NCBI GenBank assembly: GCA_011364925.1
Contig: RDOA01000007.1
Coordinates: 6,936 to 70,935, forward strand
DNA length: 64,000 bases
Direction of reading: 5' to 3'
Source of the DNA: Promethearchaeota archaeon
GTDB taxonomy: Archaea; Asgardarchaeota; Lokiarchaeia; Sigyniarchaeales; SOKP01
Shown: positions 9,261 to 32,695 of the stretch, one piece after another
Position numbering within the stretch: position 1 is the first letter of the stretch
Layout: every line of letters starts with the position of its first letter
The notes under the pieces: model-generated
The model's input: only the letters and a program-made list of their open reading frames with translations
Database searches by the model: none
Told to the model about the DNA's origin: nothing
Program-made: the position numbers and the translations under genes

Positions 9261-10163
9261 ATGCTAAATTTTGAACAAGAACAAAAAGTATTAGAAATTG
9301 GATCGGTACGAATTGGAGGGCAGCCAGGAGAAAACCCAGTTGTTATGATTGCTACCGTTTTCTATACAAATCACGCTGCCTTATTAGACGAAAAAAAAGG
9401 GGAAATTGATCGAGATCTTGTTGAACAAGAATTAAACGAATATTCAGAAATCATAGAGGAAACTGGAATGCAAGGGATAGTTGATATAGTAGGAGGTTAT
9501 CCAGAAGCTTTACTGAAAGAATGTGAATTTGTTGCTGATGTTATCGAATATCCGTTTTTAGTAGATGGCTTAAACGACTCTTCGCGCATTCCAGCTATGG
9601 AAGGGTTAAAAGAAGTGGGACTCTTAGATCGAGCTATTTTAAACAGTATAGATGAATCTACAACAGAGGAGAGCTTAATCAAATTAAAGGAAATTGGAGT
9701 AAAATCCACGGTTTTATTAACTTTTGGAAATAAATATATATTTCCTCAACAGAAAATCGATTTCCTAAAGAATGTATTAATTCCTAAAGCGCAAAAAGCC
9801 AATATTGAAAATATTATTGTTGACACTGCCGTGTTAGATTTACCTTCTATCGGAATCAATGCCGAAACAGCAAGGAGAGTAAAAGCAGAGTTAGGGATCC
9901 CCGTAGGATTTGCTCCTGCTAATGCTATTTATGGTTGGAATTTTGTTAAAAAGTATGGAGATAAAGCTAGATGTGGTGGAATTGCTTCCTTAATGGCTTA
10001 TTGTGTCAATGCTGGAAGTGATTTTGTGCTTTTTGGACCTATTAAATTTTCAAAATGCGTTATACCAGCTATCTCTCTTATCTCAGGCATAAATTCATAC
10101 TATCGAAGGCGAATTTTACGAAAACCTATTTCCGATCGAACCCCATTGAAGCAGATCTTTTAA
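9261..10163 (+). CDS. mtrH: MtrH-family (tetrahydromethanopterin S-methyltransferase subunit H-like) methyltransferase
   Basis: FEQEQKVLEIGSVRIGGQPGENPVVMIATVFY...YPFLVDGLNDSSRIPAMEGLKEVGLLDRAILNSI follows the MtrH N-terminal pattern closely. Confidence 0.8.
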   Translation: MLNFEQEQKVLEIGSVRIGGQPGENPVVMIATVFYTNHAALLDEKKGEIDRDLVEQELNEYSEIIEETGMQGIVDIVGGYPEALLKECEFVADVIEYPFLVDGLNDSSRIPAMEGLKEVGLLDRAILNSIDESTTEESLIKLKEIGVKSTVLLTFGNKYIFPQQKIDFLKNVLIPKAQKANIENIIVDTAVLDLPSIGINAETARRVKAELGIPVGFAPANAIYGWNFVKKYGDKARCGGIASLMAYCVNAGSDFVLFGPIKFSKCVIPAISLISGINSYYRRRILRKPISDRTPLKQIF

Positions 10164-11671
10164 GATATGTATCTAATTAACAAATCTTGTGTTCGATCCA
10201 AGAATTCTTTTACATGTTGATTAATGCTTTCTTTTTTGCTTTCATCGTCTAACAAAAAAAGGATGTACATATCGTAATTTAACACAAGTATTTTCTTGAA
10301 TAAAATAATTGAATCTGAAACTCTAAATGTCGCTTCATCTTTCTCGGTAGCCTTAAAGTTAGAAAATATTTTAAATAACATTGTAAACTGTGGAGCAACT
10401 ACTTCAAAAACATTCAATAATTCTTCAGAATTTTGCATTTCAGTAATTTGCAGTGCTTTAGAATTAAACGATTCTGCTAGCACTAATCCATCACTGCTTA
10501 GGAGTAGGATTAGAGAAGCGTCTGTGGCTAATGAAAATTCTCCAAGGTTATGTTCAACTAAATCTCTATTTGGACTAAGTTTTGCAATACCAGAAGAAAA
10601 GGCTCGCAAAATTGAAAAGATTTGAAAGAGGCTTGTGATAAAAATCTCAGGAGCTCTTTCTGGGGTCAATTTAATTAATTCACTTGTTATGTTTTTAATG
10701 TTCGCTTTGATTTCTTCTGATTCGAGTATGTCAGAATCCCCCTTCGATAATATGTAAATTATTGGTGTGTTTTGTTCCAAATCTGCTAATGCAAGTTTCA
10801 TTTTTTTTAGATACTCTATGCTCTCTTCAAAACGTTTTTTATCGCGGATGTCAATAAAATAGAAAAGCAGGTCTGCTTCGAATAGGTAAATTTGAGCTTT
10901 ATTAAGATATCGTTCGTGATATATTTTTTGTCCACCTAAGTCCCAAATAAATATGGTTGCTCCCAGTGCCTCTATTGAACTTACATCTGCTCCTCTTGTT
11001 GGGCTTAACCCTATCAATTTTGAAAATTTTCTGTCAATAGAAAGTAAAAAACTTGTTTTTCCGCTATTATCTAATCCTGCAAATAAGATTTTCATTTTTC
11101 TCTGAGATGAAATCGGTGTGGAAGGCGTCTTTTCAATGGTTATAATTTTTTTCACTAGATTTCTAAAATCTGATTCTACTTTTTTTTGTTGTGGAATCTG
11201 TTTAGTCAGTTTTTTATCAAAATTAGAGAAGAAATCAATAATGATGTTTTTGAGTCGATTAATATTATTGTAAAGAAAACTCCTTTTTTTCTCGTCAATT
11301 AATATACAAAAGGCACTTGCTGCGGGAATCTCTGTCGTTTCAGTTTCGAAGAAGTGGAAAAATGTGAGAGAAGTTAGTTTAAGATCGGGAAAGGGTATAA
11401 TCCCAAAGTATTGGTAATTTTTTAATACTTCGACCTCTTTATTGTAAACAGCCCCATCTCCTATTAAGAGAGAAATGTTTTTTATTGCGATTTGAGTATA
11501 ATCCCTTAGGGAAATTGCAAGAAGATCTCTCTCTTTTTCCTCTTGACTCATGCTTTCTAACTCTTCGACCTCAAATGGTTGAGGAAACATATAAACTGGT
11601 TGAGGTCCCAGTTTATCGAAGGCGGAAAAGACCATTCCTTTAATGATTGACGATTCGATTAGCTTGTCCAT
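10160..11671 (-). CDS. Three-domain protein: longin-like (uDENN-type) N-domain, Arf/Rag-like small GTPase, C-terminal Roadblock-like domain
   Basis: Longin-like part: VFSAFDKLGPQPVYMFP...IAIKNISLLIGD...YFGIIPFPDLKLTSLTFFHFF. G1 is KILFAGLDNSGKTS, G2 is SPTRG, G3 is IWDLGGQ, and G4 is atypical (ILSKGD). The tail SLILLLSSDGLVLAESF...IILFKKILVLNYDMYILFLL is Roadblock-like. Paralog of 17255..18667. Confidence 0.8.
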   Translation of the reverse strand: MDKLIESSIIKGMVFSAFDKLGPQPVYMFPQPFEVEELESMSQEEKERDLLAISLRDYTQIAIKNISLLIGDGAVYNKEVEVLKNYQYFGIIPFPDLKLTSLTFFHFFETETTEIPAASAFCILIDEKKRSFLYNNINRLKNIIIDFFSNFDKKLTKQIPQQKKVESDFRNLVKKIITIEKTPSTPISSQRKMKILFAGLDNSGKTSFLLSIDRKFSKLIGLSPTRGADVSSIEALGATIFIWDLGGQKIYHERYLNKAQIYLFEADLLFYFIDIRDKKRFEESIEYLKKMKLALADLEQNTPIIYILSKGDSDILESEEIKANIKNITSELIKLTPERAPEIFITSLFQIFSILRAFSSGIAKLSPNRDLVEHNLGEFSLATDASLILLLSSDGLVLAESFNSKALQITEMQNSEELLNVFEVVAPQFTMLFKIFSNFKATEKDEATFRVSDSIILFKKILVLNYDMYILFLLDDESKKESINQHVKEFLDRTQDLLIRYIS

Positions 11672-11755
11672 TCGTTGGAGTTTCTTGTTTATAATTGCTA
11701 ATAATAAAAGGTAGTAAATTTAATTATATATAGCTAGCTTTATTCTAGAACAACA

Positions 11756-12724
11756 ATGCTGGAAAAAATTGCGAACTACATTCGGAATAACAGAAACATC
11801 ATTGAAAAAGAAGAACTTAATCCCATTGTAGAGTTTATCAACGCTAACTCTTACAAGAGTTCCCACATTTTTTCAGACATGGGACAAGATTCTGCGGCAA
11901 TTAAAAGAAACGACGATACGCTTACGTTAGTAACCACCGATAGAATACGAACGAGTTTTATCGAAAGATTTCCATTTGGAGCCGGATTCAGTTCTATATT
12001 GGTTGGTGTTGACGATATTTACGCTTGTGGGGGAACGCCCTTAGCAGCAACGGTTATCATATCTTTCAAGGATAAAAGTGTAGGTCAAAAAATGATTGAA
12101 GGGATTAGTAATGGCTCTCACAAGTTTAAAGTTCCGATTATTAGGGGTCATACCAATACAAAAGATTACTACGAACTAAGCTCTACTTTAATCGGTGAAA
12201 TTAATAAGAACGATTATATTCCTGCTAACACTGCTAAAGAACTTGACGAGATTATTTTGGCTGTGGATTTTGATGGAAAAGTAGGTAGAGCAAGTAAGTT
12301 GCATTGGGATACCGTTACGTATAAATCATCTGAAGAAGTCTTAAACAAAAGGTATGCCATGAATCTTATTGCTCAATCTCATCTTGCCCACTCTTCTAAG
12401 GATGTATCCAATGGTGGAATATTTGGCACGATTTTACAATTATTAAAGTATTCAAGGGTAGGAGCAGCTATCAACATAAATCAAATTGAAATTCCTTCTA
12501 AATTAGTTGCAAAAGGATATGATCTCGAAACTTATGTTCAAATGTTTTTAACTACCTCTTATGTCTTGACCGCAGTTAGCAAAAATTGTCAAAAAATATT
12601 AAAAATATTCCAAGATCACCATATGAACGCGGTTGTTATTGGAAGTATTAAAAATGAGTTTGATTTATCTATTAATAATGGTCAGAATTCGATTAAAGTA
12701 ATTGATTTTAAACATAATATATAA
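11756..12724 (+). CDS. AIR synthase-related protein (PurM/ThiL/HypE superfamily)
   Basis: Motifs: GQDSAAIKRNDDTLTLVTTD...VGVDDIYACGGTPLAATVIISF and SKDVSNGGIFGTILQLL. Confidence 0.7.
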   Translation: MLEKIANYIRNNRNIIEKEELNPIVEFINANSYKSSHIFSDMGQDSAAIKRNDDTLTLVTTDRIRTSFIERFPFGAGFSSILVGVDDIYACGGTPLAATVIISFKDKSVGQKMIEGISNGSHKFKVPIIRGHTNTKDYYELSSTLIGEINKNDYIPANTAKELDEIILAVDFDGKVGRASKLHWDTVTYKSSEEVLNKRYAMNLIAQSHLAHSSKDVSNGGIFGTILQLLKYSRVGAAININQIEIPSKLVAKGYDLETYVQMFLTTSYVLTAVSKNCQKILKIFQDHHMNAVVIGSIKNEFDLSINNGQNSIKVIDFKHNI

Positions 12725-12759
12725 AATTTTAAGAAGAAAATTTAAAACAGGCAATTGCT

Positions 12760-13320
12760 ATGGATTTTGATTTTAAAAAAAGTTTTAAGGGGACAATCTC
12801 CGTTATTGGGACAAGTGAGATCGACGTAGTCACTAAAAAGATAACAATTGAGCTAGGACGATTATTGGCTGAGAATCATTATGCTATTTCTTGTGGAGGG
12901 TTATCTGGAGTAATGGAAGCTGTTTGTAAAGGAGCAAAGCTGGCTAATGGCCTTACAATCGGAGTTATTCCATTTGAAGATAAGTCTTATGCAAATAAAT
13001 ATGTAGATGTTGTAATTCCAGTTCCATTTTCTCAAGCTCGAAACATTATCGTCGTATTGAGTGGTGATGCGTGTGTCGCTGTAGGTGGAAAAGCAGGGAC
13101 GCTTTCTGAAATGTGTTTCGCTTGGATATACGGAAAACCAATTATTGCATTAACAGGTGAAGTTGAGGGATGGTCATCGAAGATGGCAGGAAAAAAAATA
13201 GATGATAGGAGGGGTGACGTAATTTACGAAGCCAAAACTCCTCAAGAGGTAGTTGATAAGTTAAACGATCTCTTTAAATCTCAATCTAAAATAATGTATA
13301 AAATGCCTACCGAATTTTGA
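12760..13320 (+). CDS. TIGR00725-family protein (LOG/SLOG, Rossmann-like, lysine-decarboxylase-like)
   Basis: Motifs: ISVIGTSE...LGRLLAENHYAISCGGLSGVMEAVCKGAK...IGVIP...VAVGGKAGTLSEM. Confidence 0.75.
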   Translation: MDFDFKKSFKGTISVIGTSEIDVVTKKITIELGRLLAENHYAISCGGLSGVMEAVCKGAKLANGLTIGVIPFEDKSYANKYVDVVIPVPFSQARNIIVVLSGDACVAVGGKAGTLSEMCFAWIYGKPIIALTGEVEGWSSKMAGKKIDDRRGDVIYEAKTPQEVVDKLNDLFKSQSKIMYKMPTEF

Positions 13321-13492
13321 TGCAATGAATTTTATTAAAATGCTAATAAAGGCACCTTTTTGAAGGAGTAGTGTGTTTCTTTTTTGAACTTAACAAATGT
13401 TTTTAATATTTAAGTTAAAGATAATTTTATAAGATTGTTTGCAATATTATTCTACATAAGAATATATACAAATATTTTCTTGTGTAGTTCAA

Positions 13493-13497
13493 GGTGA
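13493..13497 (+). promoter_or_regulatory. Shine-Dalgarno-like GGTGA 7 nt upstream of the TTG start at 13505
   Basis: The sequence caaGGTGAaacttttTTG is read directly. Confidence 0.35.
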
Positions 13498-13504
13498 AAC
13501 TTTT

Positions 13505-14473
13505 TTGACAATTCAATATTTAACGAAAGATGAGAAAGACAAGAAGAAAGTTGTTTCAGCGTCAAAGTTGCTCTTTACAGGCTTAGACAACGCCGGAAAG
13601 ACGACAATTATCTACGGATTACAACGAGAATTCTCAAAAATTGCTTTTCTTAAGCCAACACGGGGAGCTCAAAGAAGAATATTTGAATTCATGGGTAAAG
13701 AAATCGCAGAGTGGGATTTAGGAGGACAAGTTTCGTATAGAATTTCCTATTTAAAAAATCCAGGAAAATACTTCGATGACACGGAAATCGCAATTTATGT
13801 GATCGATGTTCAGAATCGAGTGAGACTACCCGAGGCAATAAGTTATCTCAAAGATGTTGTAGCGACATTCAAGAAACTTGAGATTGCGCCCCCGATCTAT
13901 GTTTTTCTCCATAAATACGATCCTGCATTAAGAAGAAATGCTTTAAATGAAATGAAGAATCTTGAAGTAGAAATTAAAGATAAAATAAAACAAACCATAG
14001 ATTATAAACAAATTTTTTATTACAATACAAGCATTTACGAGCTTTCTTCAATTATAAAAGCTATATCAGAGATCCTATTAAGTTTATATTCAAAATCTGA
14101 ATTAATTGAAAAAACTATCGTGGAATTTGGTAAAAAGACATATTCAGATGGAATCGTCCTGCTTGACGATAATTCGTTGATTATCGGTAGTTATTATAAG
14201 GATGAAGAAACTAAGAATCTATTGTCTGCAAGCACGCCTTATTTTCTAACTCTTAACGATAGTTTTATTTTTACCGAGGTTCAACCCAGTCGTCAAGAAG
14301 AGGAAAACCATATGATTGTTCAAAGATTTGGAAGAAATTTCTTATTTAAACAACTGACTTTAAAAGAAGGAATTAACCCATATTACATTCTCATGCTTAA
14401 ACAAGACACTAATATTAATAAAGACGATATAAATTCCTTTTCTAACCTATTAAAAGAGATCTTATACAGTTAA
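13505..14473 (+). CDS. Rag/Gtr-like small GTPase (Arf-like P-loop, HKxD G4) with C-terminal Roadblock-like domain
   Basis: G1 is LLFTGLDNAGKTT, G2 is KPTRG, G3 is EWDLGGQ, followed by IYVIDVQN. G4 is VFLHKYDP (HKxD, as in Rag/Gtr1). The C-terminal ~130 aa (GIVLLDDNSLIIGSYY...YYILMLKQD) are Roadblock-like. TTG start. Confidence 0.75.
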   Translation: MTIQYLTKDEKDKKKVVSASKLLFTGLDNAGKTTIIYGLQREFSKIAFLKPTRGAQRRIFEFMGKEIAEWDLGGQVSYRISYLKNPGKYFDDTEIAIYVIDVQNRVRLPEAISYLKDVVATFKKLEIAPPIYVFLHKYDPALRRNALNEMKNLEVEIKDKIKQTIDYKQIFYYNTSIYELSSIIKAISEILLSLYSKSELIEKTIVEFGKKTYSDGIVLLDDNSLIIGSYYKDEETKNLLSASTPYFLTLNDSFIFTEVQPSRQEEENHMIVQRFGRNFLFKQLTLKEGINPYYILMLKQDTNINKDDINSFSNLLKEILYS

Positions 14474-14599
14474 CTCTTTTCTTTTTTATCTTTGTTTTTG
14501 TCAATATTAATAAAATTGTGTTTTCATACTACTATTATAGTTAAAAGTATAAAAAATTAATAGTTCTGATTTTAACGATAAAAAGAAGAGATAAATAGT

Positions 14600-15598
14600 A
14601 TGATTATTTGCTCTAACTGTGGAACTACAAACAACGAACAAAACGGTCATATATGCAGGAAATGTGGTGCATTGCTCCCAATTTCTGTTAAACCCTCAAG
14701 AACAAAAACTTCATCGAAAAAGTCAGAAAAACCAAAAATTAAAGAGCAAAGAACTCCACCAGAAAAAAAGACGCCTACTACTAAACCAGAAAAGAAACCA
14801 GTTAATAAGGAGTTTAATACGGTGCCCAATGTTTTAGACCTTCACGAAATTCCTAAACCTAATGATCAAACCGAGGAGAAGTACTTGAGAGTTAACGATG
14901 AAAGCGATTTTAGCGAACCTGAAGATGATGGTGAAATTTTGAGAGAAATTCAACCACAACCATTCAGAGGCTCAATAATAGCAGAGAAAGGTGTTTATGG
15001 CCATCACCAGCAAACAGAGGGAGTGACAACTTCAAGGACCCAAGAAATTCCTTCTACTCCTAAAACCGAATCTAGTCTTATAAAACAAAAACAATTAGAA
15101 GAGGACATGACCAAGGTGCTTTCCTTTCTCTCAAAAAAAGTTACAGTTAAACCTCTCGAGTCCGCGAGAAAAAAGGAGGAAGTTAAAAAGAAACCGGAGG
15201 AGGTCATTCCTCCCTCTAGCATGACTGAAATTTTAAAAGATCTTTTAAAACTGGATTTGCATATCGAGGCGTCCGCTATTATAAAGAAAGATGGTACGAT
15301 TTTAGCTTCCGCGATTAGCTCAAGGATATCTGATTCACTTTTTGCTACGATTGGTCAAAATCTATCGATGATTGGTAATGATATTATTAATGGATTGAGT
15401 GCTGGGAACTTATTAAATATCTCAATAAGAGGGACAAATGGCGTTTTAGATTTAGCACCGATAGGATCAAAAGAAACTTTAGGAGACGATATGATTTTAA
15501 TTATTTTCTCACACCCACGAGTTAAAAGCGGAATCATAAATCTTGCCGCATCCAATGTTAGGAAACAGGTTACTCAATATTTAGGCTTGTCAAAGTAA
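14600..15598 (+). CDS. Zinc-ribbon, K/P/E/T-rich disordered linker, Roadblock/LC7 (MglB-like) domain protein
   Basis: N-terminus: CSNCGTTNNEQNGHICRKCG. The linker is ~190 aa. C-terminus: MTEILKDLLKLDLHIEASAIIKKDGTILASAIS...LFATIGQNLSMIGNDIINGL...LLNISIRGTNGVLDLAPIG...MILIIFSH. Confidence 0.8.
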   Translation: MIICSNCGTTNNEQNGHICRKCGALLPISVKPSRTKTSSKKSEKPKIKEQRTPPEKKTPTTKPEKKPVNKEFNTVPNVLDLHEIPKPNDQTEEKYLRVNDESDFSEPEDDGEILREIQPQPFRGSIIAEKGVYGHHQQTEGVTTSRTQEIPSTPKTESSLIKQKQLEEDMTKVLSFLSKKVTVKPLESARKKEEVKKKPEEVIPPSSMTEILKDLLKLDLHIEASAIIKKDGTILASAISSRISDSLFATIGQNLSMIGNDIINGLSAGNLLNISIRGTNGVLDLAPIGSKETLGDDMILIIFSHPRVKSGIINLAASNVRKQVTQYLGLSK

Positions 15599-16387
15599 TT
15601 GTTTTTGCGAGATTATTTTTGAAAGTTTCTCAGTTTTGAAAAAGGGCAAGTTTACTTGCAACTCTTGTAAAAAAGAATTTAAATTATAAACCCCGACTAA
15701 TGGAACTGAATTTTCATTTATCTTAATCCAATTTGATTCTAATGTTACCATTATTGGAATTAGAGTAAATGGTAATCTTTTTCGTAAATCATAATTGATT
15801 CCTAATATGTTCTGGATTAAGTTGGAGAGTACTTCGGGATTTTTTTTTAACGCCACCACTCTTTGGTATTGTAAATTAGCGGCTTTGTTAATCGCGCTGT
15901 AAGAATCTTTCCTTTTCCATTGCTTTGCGTCTATGACGAGTATAATGTTTTGGTGTATACCGATTACATCAATCTCGTATCTTTTTTGAGATGTTTCGTA
16001 CTTCAATGTTGATTTATCAGAAAATCTAAAATTTTTAGTAGTTTTATAGTTATTTTTTGAGAGAATATCTTGGATTAAAGCTTCAAATCCGTCGTAATCC
16101 AATAAATACGACAATTGATTAATATCTACCTCTAGGAATTGCAAACATATAGTAATAAATAGTATTTTGTCAACAACAATGTAATTAATATAGTTCCCTT
16201 TTTGAATAGAAATAAAATCAAACATACTTAAGAATTCGCGGAGCTTGAATTCGCTAAAATCCTTTAAAAAATCAATTTCAGAGATTTCTAACCAGACTTC
16301 GGTTATTTCTGAATTCCCCTCTCTAAGAAGATTATATATTTCTAAGAAAAATTGCTTAATTGAAGGAGAAGAATACAAATCAGACAT
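15590..16387 (-). CDS. PD-(D/E)xK nuclease-fold protein (NERD/Mrr-like)
   Basis: YEIDVIGIHQNIILVIDAKQWKRKD gives the D...(D/E)xK pattern. The 3' end overlaps the convergent gene by 9 nt. Confidence 0.4.
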   Translation of the reverse strand: MSDLYSSPSIKQFFLEIYNLLREGNSEITEVWLEISEIDFLKDFSEFKLREFLSMFDFISIQKGNYINYIVVDKILFITICLQFLEVDINQLSYLLDYDGFEALIQDILSKNNYKTTKNFRFSDKSTLKYETSQKRYEIDVIGIHQNIILVIDAKQWKRKDSYSAINKAANLQYQRVVALKKNPEVLSNLIQNILGINYDLRKRLPFTLIPIMVTLESNWIKINENSVPLVGVYNLNSFLQELQVNLPFFKTEKLSKIISQKQLL

Positions 16388-16456
16388 GATCTATCTTATA
16401 ATAATTATATAAAAGAATGAAAAGAGAGTAATGATATAATGATTATTTCATTAGGA

Positions 16457-16903
16457 TTAATTAGCGTTATTCGCGCTATCAATTAATTTTTTAACTTCCT
16501 TAAACTCGTAGATGACTCCTGAGTAAATGAATTCTTTCAGTTCCTCCTCATCGTGGCATTCTTCTATTTTTTTTTCTAAATCTTTGAATGGAAAGCCTAT
16601 TCGTGTATTTTTCAGGCGTGCAATCTCAAATCCAAATTTTGATAGCGTATAACTAACTAATTCTCTTATAAGAGGTGCTGTAAGTATCTTAAGGTTGGAA
16701 GAAGTGATAAAGCGAAACACATCAAGCGTAACTTTTTCAGCATCCTTCTCAGAAAGGTCTGTCTCTTTTAACAAAGACATGTATATCCGATTTGGGTCAA
16801 ACTTGTTTTTTTTCACTATTCCTGATTCTTTATCTTTATAAAGCACCTCTGGTAAAGAATCATAGATTTTTTCTTCAAACATAATAAAGGATTTTTTATA
16901 CAA
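16457..16903 (-). CDS. Hypothetical protein, possibly ATP-cone-like
   Basis: FDPNRIYMSLLKETDLSEKDAEKVTLDVFRFI...LIRELVSYTLSKFGFE resembles the ATP-cone helix pattern. Weak. Confidence 0.3.
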   Translation of the reverse strand: MYKKSFIMFEEKIYDSLPEVLYKDKESGIVKKNKFDPNRIYMSLLKETDLSEKDAEKVTLDVFRFITSSNLKILTAPLIRELVSYTLSKFGFEIARLKNTRIGFPFKDLEKKIEECHDEEELKEFIYSGVIYEFKEVKKLIDSANNAN

Positions 16904-17254
16904 TTTGATGAAAATTAGTTAAAATAGTAATTATTACCAAATAAAAGCTATTATTAATTTTTTATTAATATAGCATAATCGGCGGAATAACTGTTTTCTA
17001 AGAGCATATTAGTATATATTCAAAATTGCGATTAGTTTTAGAGCGCTTATCTAGATTTTGTTGATTTGAGAATTTTTCTTAAAATATAAGTTATATTTAA
17101 TAGAAAATTCTTTCATAATATATTAGAATAATATAATATTTTAAATCGGTTAAAAAGAATAAGGAAAAGTATATTTTTATGCTAAGAATTGAAAGCAGTG
17201 TTCTTCAGTTATTTCCTTTTAAATCTATAGTAATGTAATGAACTTCATCGAAAT

Positions 17255-18667: not shown

Positions 18668-18723
18668 CTGAAATAAATTAAAAATAAAAATTAAAATAAC
18701 TTTTTTAGAAGAACGTTATATTT

Positions 18724-21439: not shown

Positions 21440-21484
21440 CATCTAAACTTTCATTGAAAAAATTCATTAAGTCGTGAGTTAGCA

Positions 21485-21976: not shown

Positions 21977-21987
21977 TATACATCGTT

Positions 21988-22740: not shown

Positions 22741-22809
22741 TACTTGATTTATGACTGATTTTTTAATTATAAAATTTTATTAATAATAATATCACTGAAC
22801 AAGAATAAT

Positions 22810-24384: not shown

Positions 24385-24402
24385 AGCATCCTTACGAACA
24401 TT

Positions 24403-25017
24403 TCATTTTAAATTAAAAATAGTTAAGATAAAATTTTTAACGAAAGGTTTAATTACTCCTTTTTTGACACTCTCGTTCCATTTATTTATCAAAATTGTGT
24501 TATTACTTAAATCATTAATCACAGCTTGACCTAACTTAATCCATTCATTCAGTTTAATTGAGGGTGAATCATTCCCAATTCCTTGACAATATTCAAGTCC
24601 TTTTTTAGTAAAGAATACCTTCAGACTTTGTTTATTTGAATCTTTTTTGTTTACAAATATCTTGAAAGAAAAGGGAAATGTTCTACAGAAATTAGGTCTC
24701 ACATTATAAACGGAACATCGTTTCCTTTTATTGTCATAAAAGTAACATAAACCGTCAGATTTCTTCTTTAATCCAACAAACGCCAACCCTCTTTCTGTTT
24801 CTATTGGTGGGATAACCAGTTTCTCTTTTTCTTTAGCTGTGGGCTTCTTGTCAAAAGTATAAAACCCTAAAACTTCAATTACTTCATCTTCTGTTAAGTT
24901 TAGCCCATCCTTGATCCGAAGAATATCTGTATAAGTAGTATTTACTAGTGTATTTGGGTCGGTACAACACTTACCACAGTGTATACATTCAAACCTCAAA
25001 TCATTTGTGTTACTCAT
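24403..25017 (-). CDS. YkgJ-family (CxxCxxCC) zinc/iron-chelating domain protein
   Basis: Motifs: FECIHCGKCC...GLCYFYDNKRKRCSVYNVRPNFCRTFPF...EYCQGIG. Paralogous in type to 4824..5567. Confidence 0.7.
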   Translation of the reverse strand: MSNTNDLRFECIHCGKCCTDPNTLVNTTYTDILRIKDGLNLTEDEVIEVLGFYTFDKKPTAKEKEKLVIPPIETERGLAFVGLKKKSDGLCYFYDNKRKRCSVYNVRPNFCRTFPFSFKIFVNKKDSNKQSLKVFFTKKGLEYCQGIGNDSPSIKLNEWIKLGQAVINDLSNNTILINKWNESVKKGVIKPFVKNFILTIFNLK

Positions 25018-25056
25018 AATTAGATTAAGAAAAAATAGGAAAAAAAAACATATATT

Positions 25057-28000
25057 TTATTTTGTTGATGGTACAATAACTTTCTTTTTTATTAGGCTTT
25101 CGATACCTTCGATTACTATATCTTTATTCTTTTCGTGAATCAGCTCAAAGATGGTCTCTAAGTTAAATTCTTTCTTGCTTTTCGCAATCGAATAAATGAC
25201 GTTCAAGATACGAGTCTCCATTGAGTTCAGTTCTCCTTCTTTGCGGACCTTTGCTATATAATCAGCGCTATTTATCACAAATGGTTCCTTTAAGTAAAGT
25301 TCAATGTAATTATTTATAACAGGCGGAAATAGGTCTTCAAATTCGTGAATGGCGCCGTCCCAATTACCGATTTGTTCTGATAATTCTAGCATCGCTCCTA
25401 AAGATAGATCAGAGATCAAACTCTTCAATCGGTCTGAAGCCCGCTCAGTTAAAATAAAAATTATCCGTAATTCTTGCCGATCACAGATTAAACAATAGAA
25501 ATACTTGAAATCGAGCTCTAAGATGGTACGAGTTCCGTCTTCTTCGTCTATATTTACTAAATCGCCGCTCTCTCCTCTTTTTCCAACCATTTCTTCTCCG
25601 ACGGTGATGATAGCCTGTATGAATCCCGCAAAAATCTCCTTTTTTTGTTTCTCTAAAATGGAATAACTCTTAGTATAAAGTGGAATTCCACTATCCTTAT
25701 GAATCGCAACAATAGCCTGAATGTTTTCAATATCTTTAAACCTCTGTGTCCTTGATAGCAAATCTGCTTCTCTCCTTCTCCTTCTTGGTAATATAACATA
25801 CGATCTAATACTCAAAGCCCCCAAAATAGCTATAACAGATATCGAGATTATTGTAATCAAGATTAACAAAAATGGGTTTGCTTCGCTTGGAGGTGGTGGA
25901 TTTACAATATTAAATTGGTAGATATGACTCTGAGGTTCATATCCAGGAGCTGAAAATTCGAAGAAAAGTTGATATGTTCCTGTACTATCAAGAAACACTG
26001 TATTAATTAGAATACTATAAGTTCCTGGCGTTGTTTCTGTGACGCTATAATACATTGGATTAGAAATATTAACTGCTACTGTGGCGTCAGTTATACCCTC
26101 CTCACTAATTTTTGAGTAGTAAAAGAATGTGATAGTGCTATTCTGGTTGATGATAATCGAAGAATCAGAACCTAATCTTTGTAAAACGGTATCTTCACCT
26201 AAATTAATCTCTAAAATTAATGTACTATTCTCAAATCCTATTTTATAAGACGAAATGATAATAGTATATAATCCTAAAGAACCCAAATCTGAAGTGTCCA
26301 ATATTGCGTCGTATATGCCTAATCCAACCTCGACCAGGTACCTTGTACCGCTTGTCCAATTAAATGATAAAATTGCATTTGATATTGATTCATTATTCTC
26401 TGTATCGCGAAGATATATTCTTAACGGTAAAATGTCACCTACAACACCACCCGTTCGATTGTCTGATTTTGCGTCATCTGGACGTAATAATTTAATATAA
26501 GAATCATGTCTTATTACAAAATTAGAGTCGATTCCTCCTACAGAAGTGCCGTTTCCCCAAAATATTTTAAAATTATATATTCCTCCTGTTGAATTCTGAG
26601 CTGCGATATTGAAATTTGAGAATACAACTGTACCATTCGTCATAGGTATTGCGCTATCTTCAAACCAAAGGTCCCCCTCTGGACTATATATGGTTAAATT
26701 TGCTATAGTTTGTTCGAGTCCTGGTGGTATTTCATTGGTTTTATTAATTTGTGTTTTGATCTGGGCTATATCACCTGTTTGGAATTCTGAAACCCCCCAT
26801 TGACCATTCCTTGAAATTTTTACATTTTCTTCTTGGATGAAATTAGGAGATGTAGCTTTGAAAGACCACCAACCAGAGTATAGGGCGTTTGTTTTATTGA
26901 TCTTTAAAAAGGATTCACCAATATTTCCATTCTCAAAAGGACGAGAAAGAAGCGTTGGATCTAACGCATATAATATTTGCCAATTCGAAGGTTTGCTTAT
27001 GATAAACTCAAAATCTGAGTACTGTGAAGGCATAAAGAAGTTATGCGTAAAGTACCAATACACAGTTCCGTTTTCTAAGATTTCATACGAGGTTCCTTCA
27101 AGTAGAGTTTGCCCTATCCGCGAATATGCTTCGTGATATCCATATAAGTAGGTATCTAATTCAAACGAAAGCGAAGGTGAACTTGTATTTACCGTAAGAA
27201 TGACTGGATTAACAGTCCAAGTCCCCGTTAAGTTTAAATCAGAACTACCCCATTCATTTCCCTGATTTAAAGAATACCCATCAATGGTAAGATTTATATC
27301 ACTTTGGCTAGAGTTTGCGAGAGTTGTAAGCTCTAAAGACAAGTTATCAAACCAGAAAATTTGCTGATGCAGTTCGTCAAATCCAGAATAACTTATTGAC
27401 GCACCGCTCATTATTCCAAGCGATATTCTGAACTCTTGATCATTCTTAATATCTTCAAAAATGTTCGAGGTATTTAACCATAAATCTAGATTAATACTCC
27501 CAGTACTCAACCATGTTCGTCTTCCCCCATATACTACGATATCACGAATGCCCTTAGAATAAATAATTTGATCATTGATAGCACAATACATAAAATTTTC
27601 GTTCGTTGACATAGCTGATTCTGCATAATAATCAAAACTTATATATCCATCTATTACTTGACCACGTGGGATGGTTATGTTTTGATAAATTTCTGAAAAA
27701 TCGTTTTCGTAATATGTGGAACCAAAGTATCCAGTTCCAGTTCTATATGGTTCTCCTACTAAACTAACATACATTGCTGTTTCATTATCTATACTATTCG
27801 AACCATAATTATCAACTCCAGTAGCACTATTATTTCCCCAAAGGTCGTAACTATCATAATATTCTGAACCATCATGAGTATATTCGTAATAATCTATATC
27901 ATAGCCCCACCATTGAATTGAACCATCTGAATCCATCGTAATTTTTAGATGGTTAGTTTTAATCCAGGGACTAAAAAAAGCAGGTTTATTACCGGTATCA

Positions 28001-28632
28001 GTATATTGTAAAACATTACTCTCGTCGTAAAAACAGACTATATCCCAATCTGTTTCTATCTCAAATCTACTAAAATGAACTCGTATTAACGATGCGTTAT
28101 TTTGAATTATTTCGCTGTGAATGTTTGAGGGATTTGATGGGTCGTGGTTGAGATCTGCAGTGTAGTTATGTCGAGGCGGAGAAGTGTCTGGTATATTTGA
28201 TAAAGTTACATAGACTCTGTAAACATCAAGTTCGGAGAAATCTCTGTTTCTTACCCATTCTCTCGTATCTTGAATATTATTGATCTGAGTTGATATTTTC
28301 GATACTTTCCAATCGTGAACATCGTCAAGATAATAATTTAAATTGAGTTCTGCTTGATTATCTAATGATACATCTTGACTATCAACATATAGATTTCCAT
28401 AATCGGTTATATTTAGCGGAACTTCACTACCCTCAAATGCAACAGAATCTGGATCTGATAGTGTTGGACTTTGAAAGCGGTCAATTAAATCTTTATTTAT
28501 CGCTTGTAAATTCTTATTCGATTGTGGAACGAAAAAGCTACTTGAAATAATTATTACAAATAGAATCATTAGAGATGTAATCCTTAGAATTAAGCTTCTT
28601 TTTGTATGTTCGAAGTGTGAAAAAATTTTCAT
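25057..28632 (-). CDS. Single-pass surface receptor-like protein: N-terminal anchor/signal, ~890-aa sequon-rich ectodomain with CUB-like module, internal TM, cytoplasmic longin-like + winged-helix tail
   Basis: N-terminal TM: LILRITSLMILFVIIISSSFFV. The ectodomain has many N-x-S/T sequons. The CUB-like stretch is SLIRVHFSRFEIETDWDIVCFYDES...NHLKITMDSDGSIQWWGYDIDYY. The internal TM is FLLILITIISISVIAILGALSI, followed by RSYVILPRRRRRE. The tail reads IQAIVAIHKDSGIPLYTKSY...FAGFIQAIITVGEEM...TILELDFKYFYCLICDRQELRIIFILTE...METRILNVIYSIAKSKKEFNLETIFELI. Confidence 0.7.
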   Translation of the reverse strand: MKIFSHFEHTKRSLILRITSLMILFVIIISSSFFVPQSNKNLQAINKDLIDRFQSPTLSDPDSVAFEGSEVPLNITDYGNLYVDSQDVSLDNQAELNLNYYLDDVHDWKVSKISTQINNIQDTREWVRNRDFSELDVYRVYVTLSNIPDTSPPRHNYTADLNHDPSNPSNIHSEIIQNNASLIRVHFSRFEIETDWDIVCFYDESNVLQYTDTGNKPAFFSPWIKTNHLKITMDSDGSIQWWGYDIDYYEYTHDGSEYYDSYDLWGNNSATGVDNYGSNSIDNETAMYVSLVGEPYRTGTGYFGSTYYENDFSEIYQNITIPRGQVIDGYISFDYYAESAMSTNENFMYCAINDQIIYSKGIRDIVVYGGRRTWLSTGSINLDLWLNTSNIFEDIKNDQEFRISLGIMSGASISYSGFDELHQQIFWFDNLSLELTTLANSSQSDINLTIDGYSLNQGNEWGSSDLNLTGTWTVNPVILTVNTSSPSLSFELDTYLYGYHEAYSRIGQTLLEGTSYEILENGTVYWYFTHNFFMPSQYSDFEFIISKPSNWQILYALDPTLLSRPFENGNIGESFLKINKTNALYSGWWSFKATSPNFIQEENVKISRNGQWGVSEFQTGDIAQIKTQINKTNEIPPGLEQTIANLTIYSPEGDLWFEDSAIPMTNGTVVFSNFNIAAQNSTGGIYNFKIFWGNGTSVGGIDSNFVIRHDSYIKLLRPDDAKSDNRTGGVVGDILPLRIYLRDTENNESISNAILSFNWTSGTRYLVEVGLGIYDAILDTSDLGSLGLYTIIISSYKIGFENSTLILEINLGEDTVLQRLGSDSSIIINQNSTITFFYYSKISEEGITDATVAVNISNPMYYSVTETTPGTYSILINTVFLDSTGTYQLFFEFSAPGYEPQSHIYQFNIVNPPPPSEANPFLLILITIISISVIAILGALSIRSYVILPRRRRREADLLSRTQRFKDIENIQAIVAIHKDSGIPLYTKSYSILEKQKKEIFAGFIQAIITVGEEMVGKRGESGDLVNIDEEDGTRTILELDFKYFYCLICDRQELRIIFILTERASDRLKSLISDLSLGAMLELSEQIGNWDGAIHEFEDLFPPVINNYIELYLKEPFVINSADYIAKVRKEGELNSMETRILNVIYSIAKSKKEFNLETIFELIHEKNKDIVIEGIESLIKKKVIVPSTK

Positions 28633-28777
28633 AATATCCCCTGTTGTAGATTAGAATAATTATAAAATGTATAAAAGCTTAAATTAATAAATTTAAGTTT
28701 TAAGCTAGACAGAAGACCTATAGTGTTAGTAACTTATATTCAAGTTTACTATGAAAAATAACCAGCTAATTCTTTAC

Positions 28778-29101
28778 TTAATTAAGGATATCGTTCCTAA
28801 ACTCTGATTTTAGAATATTTAAAAAGGAAACGCGATCTTCGTTCGTTAAGGCGTTTGGGGTAATCCCCTTATTATTAAAGCTATCTGGAGGTAAATCGTC
28901 AAAAAGTGACAAAATAAGGATAATAGCGTTTTTTACGAACTCCTTTCTTCTGGTTCGTTTTAGGACTTTCATTAAATGAATAAACGATTTATTTCTCCAC
29001 ATGGCGGTTGCTTCCCGTTCGGAACTTTGGTTTTGGTAGAACTCAATAATACTCAGATAATAATCAAGCTCATAGTCTTCGTTGTTATTTGACACTTTCA
29101 T
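28778..29101 (-). CDS. Hypothetical protein
   Basis: 107-aa ORF with no motif recognised. Confidence 0.45.
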   Translation of the reverse strand: MKVSNNNEDYELDYYLSIIEFYQNQSSEREATAMWRNKSFIHLMKVLKRTRRKEFVKNAIILILSLFDDLPPDSFNNKGITPNALTNEDRVSFLNILKSEFRNDILN

Positions 29102-29351
29102 TATTCTTAAACCGTATTCTTAATTATCTAATCTTAGAATTTGCTTTTAAATTAGATGAGAATTTTAATTTTTTGTTGTATTAATTTGCGCATCTATTTT
29201 TATTCAAAACTTCTAATCCAATTGTTTTGAAAATTGTATTCTTCTTAATTCAGTTTAAGAATATATAATGGTATTTTATGTTTTTATGTGATATTTAGAT
29301 AATATATCCATCTAAAGAGCATAAATAAAAATTGACTCTAATTTAGAAAGA

Positions 29352-30353
29352 TTATACATTTTCTAATTCTGGAGGAATATACCCAAAGGTTTTTTGAAAT
29401 CGTGATTTTACACTTTTAATGTCATAAGTTTGTGTCTGAGCGCCATTTGTCTCTACAACAAAGGATCCTAAAATGGATCCTAACCGGCATGAGTCAAGAA
29501 GATTCATACTAAGAATTAATCCCGTAAGAAGTCCTGCACGATAACCGTCTCCCGCACCTGTAGCATCAGCGATGTTATTAGGTATCGCAATAGGTATTAC
29601 TTCGCTTTTTAAATCTCCAGAATCTGTTTTAGAAATTAATTCAGAGCCTTCTGAGCCTTTTGTTTTTATTATGGCTTTCACATGCTCAAGAATGTTTTGC
29701 TCGCTTAAATTTGTTTTTTTAATTACTTGACTAATTTCAAACGAGTTTCCAATCAAAATTTCTGATCTTTTTAGAATATCTATTAGATCTTCTCTTGAAA
29801 ATAGAGGGCTAACTTGGCCAGGATCAAAGATCATAGGAATTTTCAGGCGACTTAGTTGCTCCGCAAAATTCTTCATTGCCTCAACACTCTGCGTTGAATT
29901 AATCGCATAAGCGTATTGTTCAGGATCGGTAATCTTCTTACCTAAATCAATGTTTTTATTCTCGTCCAAAGCGCCACCATGAAAGATTATCATTTGGTTT
30001 GCTTTATTATCGTTTACTATATAACATGCCGCCGTAAAAAGATCAGACTGGACATCTAGGTTCAAATCGATGTTTTGGAATTGTGTTATATGGTCTTTAT
30101 AACCTAAACTATAGAAGTCTTTTCCTACTGAACCAAGTAAAGCAACCTTTGATATGTTGAGTAATCCTAAGTTATACGCTATATTTCCCGCAGTTCCTCC
30201 AAAAAATTGGATACGACTATTAGCGGTAATTGTGCTTTGATATTCTTCTCTTTCTACATCTATTGAAACAGCATTAACAAAATTTTCTTCGAAACTCATG
30301 ATGTAGTCAAATGCTAATGAACCCAGAACGATAATTTTATCTCGCTTCAACAT
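29352..30353 (-). CDS. PfkB-family sugar/nucleoside kinase (ribokinase/adenosine-kinase-like)
   Basis: Motifs: FGGTAGNIAYNLGLL, KTKGSEGS, and ATGAGDGYRAGLLTGL (the PfkB C-terminal signature context). Confidence 0.85.
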   Translation of the reverse strand: MLKRDKIIVLGSLAFDYIMSFEENFVNAVSIDVEREEYQSTITANSRIQFFGGTAGNIAYNLGLLNISKVALLGSVGKDFYSLGYKDHITQFQNIDLNLDVQSDLFTAACYIVNDNKANQMIIFHGGALDENKNIDLGKKITDPEQYAYAINSTQSVEAMKNFAEQLSRLKIPMIFDPGQVSPLFSREDLIDILKRSEILIGNSFEISQVIKKTNLSEQNILEHVKAIIKTKGSEGSELISKTDSGDLKSEVIPIAIPNNIADATGAGDGYRAGLLTGLILSMNLLDSCRLGSILGSFVVETNGAQTQTYDIKSVKSRFQKTFGYIPPELENV

Positions 30354-30486
30354 GAAACTTACCTTATTATTATTTTAAGAAAGCTATACGAATATAATTC
30401 AAAGATCAATTATAGATTTTATGAATATTGAAACTTATCAAATTAAAGAGTATTACTTTTAAAATATCAATAGTTTCTTAAATTGT

Positions 30487-31113
30487 ATGGAAAACCTCAT
30501 AAAATCGATCGAAACCTTAAAAAAGAGAGAGATATCCACCTTTATAAGTGAACGCATCACACAGTTTTCCTCAATACCTAGATTGGGAATTAAAGAGATT
30601 TTTAAAGAACTGTGCTTTTGCATAATGACTGCTAATTGTGGCGCCAAGAAATGCATAGAGGTCCAAGAAAAGATTGATGATGGCTTTTTGACATATTCAA
30701 AGGATGAGTTGAAAAAAAAATTCAAGGAATATGGCTATCGCTTCCCTAACATTAGAGCGGAGTATATTGATGACGCAAAAAGCAATATTCCAGAGTTAAA
30801 GCGCGTTTTAAACTCAAACTTAGAAGAAACAGATAAACGGGATTGGATTGTGAAAAATATCAAAGGATTGGGCTATAAAGAGGCTAGTCACTTTTTAAGA
30901 AACATCGGTTTTAGAAATTTAGCGATCATCGACTTCCATATTATTGATCTATTAGTTAAATCCAATATTATTGAAAAACCCAAAAGCCTTACGAGAAATA
31001 AATATCTTGAAATTGAATCTATTCTCAAACAATTGGGAACTGAGTTAAATTTAGATCTGGGAACTTTAGATTTATATATGTGGTATCTAGAAACTAAGGA
31101 AGTTCTTAAATAA
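30487..31113 (+). CDS. ogg: Archaeal Ogg2-type 8-oxoguanine DNA glycosylase / AP lyase (HhH-GPD)
   Basis: Motifs: ELCFCIMTANCGAKK, GYRFPNIRAEYI, IKGLGYKEASHFLRNIGFRNLAIIDFHIIDLL. Confidence 0.85.
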   Translation: MENLIKSIETLKKREISTFISERITQFSSIPRLGIKEIFKELCFCIMTANCGAKKCIEVQEKIDDGFLTYSKDELKKKFKEYGYRFPNIRAEYIDDAKSNIPELKRVLNSNLEETDKRDWIVKNIKGLGYKEASHFLRNIGFRNLAIIDFHIIDLLVKSNIIEKPKSLTRNKYLEIESILKQLGTELNLDLGTLDLYMWYLETKEVLK

Positions 31114-31128
31114 AAGTTGAAATTGTTT

Positions 31129-31395
31129 CTATAGATTCCCTAAAGGTAAATCTAAATCTACTTCGGCTGTTTTGAGTTTTTTCATAAATTCTATTGTTCC
31201 ACGGTCGTTTATCATCAATTCTAAGAAATTCTCGTATAAAGCTTCAATGTTGTCTTGTCCCAAATTAAAGTACATGTTTTCAGAAGTGAGAGCTATATTT
31301 AGAATATCGTAAAGCCCTTGGATACACTCTTTTATGTTCTCAAAGTTATCAAAGGCTCTCTTGGTTAATTCAGCTAAACTTTCAGTATTTGTCAC
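31129..31395 (-). CDS. Hypothetical small helical protein
   Basis: 88-aa ORF with a GTG start. No motif. Confidence 0.4.
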   Translation of the reverse strand: MTNTESLAELTKRAFDNFENIKECIQGLYDILNIALTSENMYFNLGQDNIEALYENFLELMINDRGTIEFMKKLKTAEVDLDLPLGNL

Positions 31396-31651
31396 CGCTA
31401 ATTCTTACACCATCAAATCTTAACCTATTAAATAATGAAATTGTTAGAAATTTAAAAATTGCGAGAAAATTACGGATTTCCGTGACTAAAGAACAAATTT
31501 TTTGAAACTCTAAAATGATAATAACCCTAAAGGAGCTAAACCATTTATCTAATAACTCAAGTATAAATAATTAAAATTTTTTAGATATATATTACCATTC
31601 GAATGGAAATTATTGAGTTACAATTTCTAATTACCTCTAATATCATAAAAT

Positions 31652-32695
31652 ATGAGAAAGTTAATTGATGCGGTAATTTACACGGATATTCACGATGAAT
31701 TAGGGCCAGATCCTATTCATTGGGCGCCTCCAGATTTACCTGAATCAATAAGGATGTTAGTGGGAATTAAAACAATGACCTTGTTAACGGGAGACCAAGG
31801 AACTGTGCCTAATTCCTTATTAATCATTCCATTTCCTTCTTTAAAACTAAAAGGACTAATAAGATACATAGAAAGAGAGGATAGCAGCAAACGGGGTGGT
31901 TTTGCGCGATCAGCTATAACGTTCTTATTCAAAGAAGCCGATGATGTAATATTTTACAAGTATATGAGCTTTCTTAAAGCTCCATTTGATGAAACCGCAA
32001 GAAGGATTATCGAACTTGAGAATAATGAGGTAGAAAAAGAAAAAGTCTTTGAAGAAATCAGCTACTTAAGAGATAGTGTAGGTCAATTATTAGATGATTT
32101 CAGAGCTAAAGAAATTTCCTTCCCATCTGCTAAAGAATTTCCCGAAAGAATTATAAGAGGGGATAAGATTGTTGATTATAGATTCAAGCTCGTTGTAGTA
32201 GGTGATCCAGGTGTAGGTAAAACTTCAACAATTTTACGCTTTACCGATAATGCATTTTTAAGGACATACGTTCCTACTTTAGGAGTTAGTATTACCGAGA
32301 AAATCTTTCAAATCGATGAGAAAGCTGTAGAAGCAATCTTGTGGGACATTGCGGGTCAGAATAAGTTTCAAACGATGAGGAGGCACTTCTATCAAGGAGC
32401 CGAGGCAATCTTACTTATTTTTGACTTAACAAATCGAATCTCTTTTAACAGTATTAAAAATTGGTACGAAGATATTATGAAAAATATGGAAAAGCATCAT
32501 CACCAAATGACTGGCTATATTTTCGGAAATAAAAATGATTTGATTGATGTGCGTAAAGTTAAATTGGTTGAAGCGTTAGCATTAGCTAAAGAATTAAACT
32601 TAAAATACATTGAAACTTCTGCTATGACTGGAAGAAACGTGGAATACGCTTTTTACGACATGGCAGAAACTGTAATAAAATTAAGAATAGAATAA
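31652..32695 (+). CDS. Longin-like N-domain fused to a Rab/Ras-like small GTPase
   Basis: N-domain: VIYTDIHDELGPDPIHWAPP...LVGIKTMTLLTGD...LLIIPFPSLKLKGLIRYI, the same family as in 10160 and 17255. G1 is KLVVVGDPGVGKTS, G2 is YVPTLGV, G3 is LWDIAGQNKF, G4 is FGNKNDL, G5 is ETSAMTG. Confidence 0.9.
   Translation: MRKLIDAVIYTDIHDELGPDPIHWAPPDLPESIRMLVGIKTMTLLTGDQGTVPNSLLIIPFPSLKLKGLIRYIEREDSSKRGGFARSAITFLFKEADDVIFYKYMSFLKAPFDETARRIIELENNEVEKEKVFEEISYLRDSVGQLLDDFRAKEISFPSAKEFPERIIRGDKIVDYRFKLVVVGDPGVGKTSTILRFTDNAFLRTYVPTLGVSITEKIFQIDEKAVEAILWDIAGQNKFQTMRRHFYQGAEAILLIFDLTNRISFNSIKNWYEDIMKNMEKHHHQMTGYIFGNKNDLIDVRKVKLVEALALAKELNLKYIETSAMTGRNVEYAFYDMAETVIKLRIE

Follow-up and report, generated by a model that had tools for sequence, protein, structure and literature searches.

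The question raised by this locus is whether a crowd of genes for small GTPases and for longin and Roadblock proteins, found in one short part of an archaeal genome, reflects a common function or a common history. The DNA under study, which we call the window, is the whole stretch of 64,000 nucleotides (nt) that was analyzed from contig RDOA01000007.1 (assembly GCA_011364925.1) of a Promethearchaeota archaeon; it is AT-rich, with a G+C content of about 32%. A sequence-only reading had described seven genes within 22.5 kb of the window as an unusually dense cluster that suggested functional linkage, and an open reading frame (ORF) check of the window found all seven where that reading had placed them. 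Four encode small GTPases, G1 (10160..11671, reverse strand), G2 (13505..14473, forward), G3 (17255..18667, forward) and G4 (31652..32695, forward), and three encode candidate partners, namely R (14600..15598, forward), L (20090..20731, forward, with a corrected start) and BIG (25057..28632, reverse). The answer that we favor, with moderate confidence, is that ancient local paralogues have been retained in a frozen segment of the core genome, with a plausible pairwise coupling of G2 with R and of G3 with L.

The evidence that carries this answer is gene order. The best 80 loci from species-representative genomes, obtained in a scan with G3 and taken with 10-kb flanks, were compared by tblastn with the proteins of the window, together with 44 metagenome loci and two further contigs. 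Collinearity was seen in 79 of the 80 loci, and all 49 loci showing at least 10 block genes were collinear with the genes on the same strands. The mean protein identity of these loci was below 55% in 13 and 55-60% in 24, that is, 37 of them lie at 52-60%. The order runs from an MtrH-family gene through G1, AIR-synthase-like and LOG-like genes, G2, R, NERD and an ATP-cone or NrdD slot to G3, and then through an optional transglutaminase gene, L, L13e-HhH, w21485, a methyltransferase gene, w22810 and a CxxCxxCC gene to BIG. The sequence-only reading had allowed that synteny might be lacking; instead, the order G1, G2-R, G3, L, BIG was kept in every one of the 49 loci. Since the arrangement recurs in dozens of divergent genomes, it was inherited and is not a one-off. 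We consider it reasonably probable that it represents a Lokiarchaeia core-genome block of about 27 kb whose gene order was frozen before these species diverged. The collinear block extends over 4257..31404 on both strands, with its left part (4257-9261) backed by 3-19 loci only; besides housekeeping genes, it includes G1, G2, R, G3, L and BIG.

Every gene of the block was present when both of its flanks were visible, with small misses for the ATP-cone ORF (68/70) and w22810 (47/48) and larger exceptions for the transglutaminase gene (55/69) and for L13e-HhH, a divergent and poorly detected gene that was often missed at the tblastn threshold used. L was found in all 63 loci in which it was expected, and the MtrH, AIR-synthase-like, LOG-like, NERD, methyltransferase and CxxCxxCC genes were likewise retained in 100% of the cases. 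The block does admit insertions. These measure 1-8 kb and occur at the AIR-synthase-like/LOG-like, LOG-like/G2, NERD/G3 and CxxCxxCC/BIG junctions, and almost never between G2 and R or between R and NERD. G2 and R were adjacent in 59 of 59 loci, R always being immediately downstream, and the gap between them was shorter than 600 nt in 57. G3 and L are parted only by the optional transglutaminase-core gene (18724-19941, reverse strand), the only clearly dispensable gene of the block; it was missing in 14 of the 69 loci, in which L comes directly after G3.

At its right end, the block stops short of G4. In closer relatives (G4 57-87% identical), metagenome loci found by means of G4 keep the series BIG, w28778, PfkB, Ogg, G4 and nitroreductase. 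In the loci L103, L110 and L115, G4-like genes adjoin, in inverted orientation, the series w4257, w4824, w7196, MtrH and G1; there the block in its entirety is turned around relative to G4 and the nitroreductase gene, and the breakpoint falls between 31404 and G4. In locus L126, with a BIG tail 55% identical to that of the window, the genes run from NrdD-G3 through BIG, PfkB, Ogg and the ORF at 31132-31404 into unrelated genes, and no G4 was found next to Ogg. Because of the inversion breakpoint beside G4 and the absence of G4 in L126, we place the stable unit at about 4257-31404 and leave G4, which lies just beyond it, outside. GTPase genes are gained and lost at this edge of the block, and G4 appears to be an accidental or recent neighbor. 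Tandem duplicates of G4 were observed in L102, L103, L105, L106 and L115, and an inverted G4-like copy (35-37% identical) follows the nitroreductase gene in L094, L098, L099, L106 and L111; the window has none of these extra copies seen in relatives. The small ORF between Ogg and G4 (31132-31404, reverse strand, about 90 amino acids [aa]), which the sequence-only reading had not listed, is itself conserved, with 52% identity in L126.

The GTPases themselves were identified with little ambiguity, and the four small-GTPase genes of the sequence-only reading were borne out. The top Pfam family is Gtr1_RagA for G1 (3.9e-20), G2 (3.6e-24) and G3 (2.1e-25), in all three ahead of Arf, and Ras for G4 (8.8e-48). 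The P-loop, DxxGQ and [NSH]KxD motifs are intact in all four proteins. The motif set of G1-G3 is GLDN[SA]GKT or GLDRAGKT, DLGGQ and SKGD/HKYD/NKCD; protein G1 has GLDNSGKT, DLGGQ and SKGD, and HKYD is the fourth nucleotide-binding motif (the G4 motif, in the usual motif numbering) of protein G2. Among structures in the PDB, G3 matched 8yl2, 8zla, human RagA and yeast Gtr1, and G2 matched 8yl2_A, a solved "GTP-binding protein", over its full length (E=1.7e-85), such that a close relative of G2 has a solved structure; a literature search on the PDB codes 8YL2, 8ZLA and 9M28 found no relevant paper. By these matches G1-G3 are nearer to Gtr1/RagA than to other small-GTPase families, with the Asgard "ArfL" group as the alternative class. 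G4 ends in ...VIKLRIE, without the prenylatable cysteine that is a feature of Rab GTPases, and is best called Ras-like (Asgard "RasL" group) and not Rab. G2 orthologues are 54-91% identical over 59 loci. The most conserved protein of the block is G3, with 683 detectable homologues, a best match of 98% identity on a 1.9-kb ENA contig and full-length orthologues (63-98% identical) labeled Promethearchaeota or Lokiarchaeota; all of them come from metagenome-assembled genomes of Promethearchaeota/Lokiarchaeia, which agrees with the Asgard origin that had been proposed. A look-up of the exact G3 sequence gave no entry. A phmmer search with each domain against all stop-to-stop frames of at least 60 aa revealed no further GTPase in the 64 kb.

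The domains around the GTPase core set these proteins apart from one another. G1 (503 aa) and G3 (470 aa) consist of a longin, a Rag-Gtr-like GTPase and a C-terminal domain of Rag type; G2 (322 aa) has the Rag-Gtr-like GTPase and the C-terminal domain without the longin, which is the architecture of eukaryotic RagA/Gtr1; and G4 (347 aa) is a longin fused to a Ras-like GTPase. The C-terminal domains of G1, G2 and G3, of about 120 aa, are mutually homologous by phmmer and hhalign, and the alignment of G3 with human RagA crosses from the G domain about 60 residues into the RagA C-terminal domain. When a profile of these domains was compared with PDB sequences, the C-terminal domain of 8yl2 was the only match (3.8e-9); hits to COMMD6 and haemagglutinin were dismissed as noise. 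The domains thus occupy the position of the Rag C-terminal roadblock and may be called putative roadblocks on homology and position, and the literature on 'Ca. Prometheoarchaeum syntrophicum' MK-D1 assigns a roadblock (RB) to this GTPase-RB architecture (Tran et al., 2024; PMC10933270). No profile link was obtained by hhalign between them and the roadblock domain of R. G1, G2 and G3 are, as judged from their sequences, paralogues.

The N-terminal domains of G1, G3 and G4 (about 160-185 aa) are also mutually homologous, both by phmmer (G3-G1, 1.5e-18; G3-G4, 8.5e-18) and by hhalign, with a probability of 100% among the three. Their joint profile had a single significant match in the PDB, 8yqg "Longin domain" (E=0.0027, 126 aligned positions), and G3 shows a weak Pfam Folliculin match (2.7e-3). 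A Gly-Pro pair (GP) is invariant in the alignment of the three domains. In 79 G3 orthologues G21-P22 is found in 98% and R91-G92 in 100%, A90-R91-G92 being conserved at 98-100%; in 23 G1 orthologues G22-P23 is found in 100% and an arginine at the aligned site in none; and G4 has K-R-G-G at the position aligned with the arginine of G3. In a weak hhalign alignment, the G3 segment FLILDPTARGNA-KAATVTILID falls on human folliculin, whose sequence was checked against 6ulg_L, with R91 placed onto R164 (S-L-A-R164-G), in agreement with the Pfam match. A GP motif before the second longin strand plus an arginine finger marks the GTPase-activating protein (GAP) longins FLCN, SMCR8 and NPRL2, C9orf72 has the GP motif without the arginine, and one class of Asgard longins has both, their GTPase targets being left open (PMC12290439). 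The position of GP relative to the longin strands was read here from the sequence pattern only. It appears, then, that GP-motif longins are fused directly to Rag-like and Ras-like GTPases and, as a lead, that G1 and G3 may differ in the way of the non-catalytic and catalytic subunits of the eukaryotic longin GAP dimers.

Of the stand-alone partners, R (332 aa) starts with a zinc ribbon of the form CxxC...CxxC (Pfam Zn_Ribbon_TF, 4e-3, below the cut-off), continues with a low-complexity linker of Lys, Pro and Glu and ends in a C-terminal domain conserved at 62-87% identity among orthologues. The latter matches Pfam Robl_LC7 at 7.7e-3 (16.4 bits, under the curated cut-off of 23 bits), and a profile of 37 R orthologues reached the PDB entries 7f8m (8.5e-4), 7yh1 and 9jue, all Roadblock/LC7, such that the assignment is weak but consistent. 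Matches of R to "Cake" designer proteins were set aside as repeat artefacts in which no single stretch passes. The four Roadblock-like domains of the sequence-only reading are therefore a reasonable count, made up of R with weak matches and of the C-terminal domains of G1, G2 and G3 by homology and position only.

The gene for L required a new start. The sequence-only reading had begun it at GTG 20162, which is not borne out: homologues of L start 20-30 residues earlier, with a conserved segment IYKIYLIDGDNGISILE, and the same segment occurs in frame upstream of this GTG. The frame is open over 20057-20161, where it encodes the first two longin beta-strands of L (IIYKIFLIDSENGISLLEATFKEL), and contains no in-frame ATG, GTG or TTG; the TTG start of an L orthologue corresponds to ATT 20090, 72 nt before GTG 20162. 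Given this conserved in-frame N-terminus, the lack of an ATG, GTG or TTG and the aligned TTG of the orthologue, L probably starts at the non-canonical ATT 20090 and has about 213 aa; gene callers shorten it to 189 or 162 aa. Pfam shows in L a weak TrmB-type helix-turn-helix match and nothing else. An AlphaFold model of the extended protein (pLDDT 75) has a beta-beta-alpha-beta-beta-beta-alpha-alpha topology of longin type followed by a confident C-terminal winged helix (winged helix-turn-helix, wHTH), and its Foldseek matches are NPRL2/NPRL3 of GATOR1, which were the best, Sec22b, VAMP7, AP sigma subunits and LAMTOR.

BIG is predicted from hydropathy to be a single-pass membrane protein of 1191 aa, with a signal anchor, an ectodomain of about 890 aa, a transmembrane (TM) segment at about 920-948, the sequence RRRRR and a cytoplasmic tail of 236 residues (aa ~955-1191). 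All 25 of its N-x-S/T sequons lie within the ectodomain, and the protein has no Pfam match. The tail was modeled by AlphaFold (pLDDT 80, pTM 0.74) with the same longin-type fold as L plus a winged helix, and its Foldseek matches are Ego3, zeta-COP, AP sigma, LAMTOR, TRAPP and Mon1-Ccz1. For L and the BIG tail, the Foldseek probability was ~1.0, with E 3e-4 to 1e-2 and a TM-score to target of up to 0.73; because roadblock proteins match too, the longin assignment is made only at the superfamily level. Five longin-like domains had been counted, a reasonable figure in which those of G1, G3 and G4 are identified by profile and those of L and BIG by predicted structure only. When the remaining unannotated ORFs of the interval and its surroundings were scanned against Pfam at relaxed thresholds, no additional longin or roadblock match appeared. 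In L126 the BIG orthologue is split into an ectodomain ORF of 858 aa (7281-9857) and an ORF of 268 aa with TM segment, longin and winged helix (10001-10807); the tblastn pieces overlap at the junction, and the split may be a frameshift or assembly error or may be genuine.

Ordinary genes are interleaved with the GTPase and partner genes, as had been claimed, and Pfam and NCBIfam gave them names: macro domain, CxxCxxCC, MtrH family, AIR-synthase-like, LOG-like, NERD and ATP-cone/NrdD slot, and further transglutaminase, L13e-HhH, methyltransferase, PfkB kinase and Ogg. Finer labels are methanogenesis-marker-2-like for the AIR synthase, TIGR00725 for the LOG-like gene, class I for the methyltransferase and nucleoside-kinase-like for PfkB. 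The slot upstream of G3 varies among relatives. Distant ones (L034, 8088-9938; L071, 8010-9824) have, directly upstream of G3 and on its strand, a full-length NrdD of about 600 aa; in the window and closer relatives there is only a 148-aa ORF on the opposite strand (16457-16903, reverse) that resembles the NrdD N-terminus and is weakly ATP-cone-like, and as such it was rejected as a further longin or roadblock gene. The block contains two CxxCxxCC (PF03692) genes, at 4824-5567 and 24403-25017 (both reverse), the second always adjoining BIG. Three conserved genes have no Pfam or NCBIfam match, 21485-21976 (forward), 22810-24384 (forward) and 28778-29101 (reverse), the last of 107 aa, which is the size of a roadblock or longin protein. 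Two convergent pairs overlap at their 3' ends, MtrH (9261-10163) and G1 by 4 nt and R and NERD (15590-16387) by 9 nt; the overlap of MtrH with G1 recurs in every locus that shows the pair.

We then asked how far such a neighborhood calls for a functional explanation at all. Lokiarchaeum GC14_75 carries about 92 small GTPases in 5.1 Mb. The 4.43-Mb genome of MK-D1 carries 74 (PMC10933270). When genes were placed at random in a simulated genome of 4.4-5.1 Mb, with family sizes assumed from the literature and not counted in this genome, any four of 74-92 GTPases came to share a 21.5-kb stretch anywhere in the genome with P=0.30-0.40. For three genes of a Rag-like subfamily numbering 15-35 to fall inside 8.5 kb, the figure was P=0.005-0.07, and for seven genes to share 21.5 kb, out of 110-150 that encode GTPases, longins or roadblock proteins, it was P=0.002-0.012. 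The four-GTPase density is, at such a probability, unremarkable under random placement, and the alleged unusual density does not hold for the GTPases alone; the clustering of all seven genes is rarer. The idea that the cluster is what one should expect by chance, given that each genome has ~74-92 small GTPases and longin and roadblock genes by the dozen, draws on the first of these figures, but the other two speak against it, as does the same arrangement in dozens of divergent genomes; synteny has already largely refuted it, and we regard it as highly improbable. A single co-regulated unit, with all four GTPases and their longin and roadblock partners expressed together in one pathway, would fit the gene order, strongly conserved in at least 49 genomes, and the fact that all component families work together in the eukaryotic Rag-Ragulator-GATOR/FLCN system. 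However, the GTPase and partner genes are divided between the two strands and have unrelated genes among them, the only co-directional neighbors being G2 followed by R and L followed by its downstream genes; no upstream word was conserved in more than two of five families; G4 is unlinked in the more distant genomes; and insertions of 2-8 kb are tolerated between sub-blocks. The interval is not an operon, a single transcription unit or common cis element is unsupported, and we think a co-regulated unit quite improbable. Of the functional linkage that the sequence-only reading had preferred to random scatter, the inherited and conserved order stands; the further step, to a shared pathway or regulon, finds no backing in view of the chance-level density of the GTPases, the equal retention of the interleaved genes, the mixed strands, the lack of a common motif, the unstable place of G4 and local duplication as a reason for the closeness of G1-G3.

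The main rival is a history of a slowly rearranging region and nothing else, in which the paralogues are local duplicates that rarely had occasion to move and R, L and BIG are unrelated neighbors drawn from very large families; we take it to be possible, though doubtful. Several findings weigh against the paired reading that we favor, and some of them speak for this rival. The housekeeping genes are conserved equally, so that the conservation of the block is not specific to the GTPase and partner genes and gene order does not single them out, and the collinearity figures stand without a genome-wide rate for blocks of 20 genes in these genomes. The 126-nt spacer between G2 and R opens on T-runs, and a TATA-like AAAGTATAAAAAATT stands in it some 45 nt upstream of the start codon of R; the spacer looks like a terminator plus a promoter, and such separate signals are, like the mixed strands, in keeping with the rival. 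A 7-mer search of 150 nt upstream in the window and its orthologues, admittedly a crude test in a genome of 32% GC, found no word conserved in more than two of five gene families beyond plain A/T TATA-like words. Profiles of all the domain families, built from orthologues, gave no hhalign link (probability <20) between L, the BIG tail, R and the GTPase-fused domains, nor between L and BIG, and for this reason the shared longin fold of L and BIG rests on predicted structures. The roadblock fold of the G1, G2 and G3 C-terminal domains is putative, and the alignment of G3 R91 with FLCN R164 is weak (hhalign E=0.034; Pfam 2.7e-3). Every protein-protein interaction and catalytic role that we suggest would be borrowed from the Rag-Ragulator-FLCN/GATOR1 and MglA-MglB precedents. 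The rival is further in keeping with the insignificant density of the four GTPases, with MK-D1, in which operons joining a GTPase gene to RB or longin genes are reported not to be the general case (PMC10933270), and with the published statement that most genes for Asgard eukaryotic signature proteins lie outside conserved neighborhoods. History by itself, on the other hand, does not sit well with seven family genes in 22.5 kb at P=0.002-0.012 under random placement, with a G2-R adjacency unbroken in 59 loci despite insertions elsewhere in the block, or with an Arg-finger asymmetry between G1 and G3 that mirrors the eukaryotic GAP-longin heterodimers.

Under the reading of retained paralogues with paired coupling, the neighborhood of G1-G3 would be explained by local duplication, since the three are paralogues that would have been born side by side and never moved apart. 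In eukaryotes and bacteria, GTPases of this kind are bound by proteins with the platform folds seen in R, L and BIG, and any functional coupling most likely lies between the neighboring pairs G2-R and G3-L and does not extend across the whole 22.5 kb. R would be the cognate roadblock regulator or scaffold of G2, and L the cognate partner of G3. From the Rag precedent, the GTPases may dimerize through their C-terminal domains, and a G1-G3 dimer is plausible; the folliculin-type longin of G3, with GP and Arg91, could supply or regulate GTP hydrolysis, G1, with GP and without the arginine, could be a non-catalytic partner, and BIG might tether a GTPase to the membrane. A bolder version would see here a pre-eukaryotic Rag-type module, with a G1:G3 heterodimer that is joined through the Rag-like C-terminal domains and has an asymmetric cis-longin GAP pocket and the Arg finger only in G3, on the model of FLCN:FNIP and NPRL2:NPRL3, with G2-R acting as in Rag-Ragulator, with the BIG longin recruiting GTPases to the membrane, and with the winged helices of L and BIG signaling to DNA or other partners; as a whole we think it improbable. 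In Asgard archaea, genome layout rarely shows which regulator fits which GTPase (PMC10933270), and the block offers conserved candidates: G2 with R, G3 with L, the G1/G3 Arg-finger pair and the GP longins fused to Rag- and Ras-like GTPases. Even one real pair among them would have a bearing on the origin of the Rag-Ragulator-FLCN/GATOR nutrient-signaling machinery; should all of them prove false, what is left is a stretch of core genome in a good state of preservation. The Rag-type module, if true, would put names to cognate pairs open to testing, both for Asgard GTPases and for longins of GAP type, which the literature treats as open questions.

One close parallel is the eukaryotic Rag-Ragulator/FLCN-FNIP/GATOR1 system, which shares with the block a Rag-type G domain followed by a C-terminal domain and the presence of roadblock and longin platform proteins. 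It also shares the GP motif and the arginine weakly aligned to FLCN R164 in the G3 and G4 longins, the combination of an Arg-bearing G3 with an Arg-less G1, and NPRL2/3 as the best structural matches of L. The block differs in having the longin in cis, as part of the GTPase polypeptide, and a winged helix in both L and BIG; it lacks a TOR kinase, LAMTOR1 and a DENN module, and its membrane anchor would be a large receptor-like protein with predicted glycosylation. The Asgard operon of a LAMTOR1-like roadblock, a Rab-like GTPase and DENN (Liu et al., bioRxiv 10.1101/2020.10.19.343400) is also a conserved GTPase-roadblock neighborhood, whereas the GTPases here are Rag-like, no DENN was detected, and the genes are not co-directional and have housekeeping genes interleaved. 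As in the bacterial MglA-MglB pair, in which MglB is a roadblock dimer acting as GAP, a small-GTPase gene is followed by a roadblock gene (G2, then R), but G2 already brings a C-terminal domain of its own, a Zn-ribbon and a long disordered linker are part of R, and the 126-nt spacer is terminator- and promoter-like. MK-D1 has the same domain architectures as G1-G4, with longin-GTPase, GTPase-RB and longin-GTPase-RB forms in 26 of its 74 small GTPases; Rag-like heterodimers formed through RB domains have been predicted in it, and its Rag-like class sits between Rag and Arf by similarity, as here (PMC10933270). The same paper describes one Rag-like operon pair only, with GTPases generally apart from RB and longin genes; here, unlike in that description, three Rag-like genes, one roadblock gene and two longin-wHTH genes stand in one conserved block, of which no description was found in the searchable literature. 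The kinds of protein and their expansion in Asgard archaea were already well known; what is new is this block and the pairings that it suggests.

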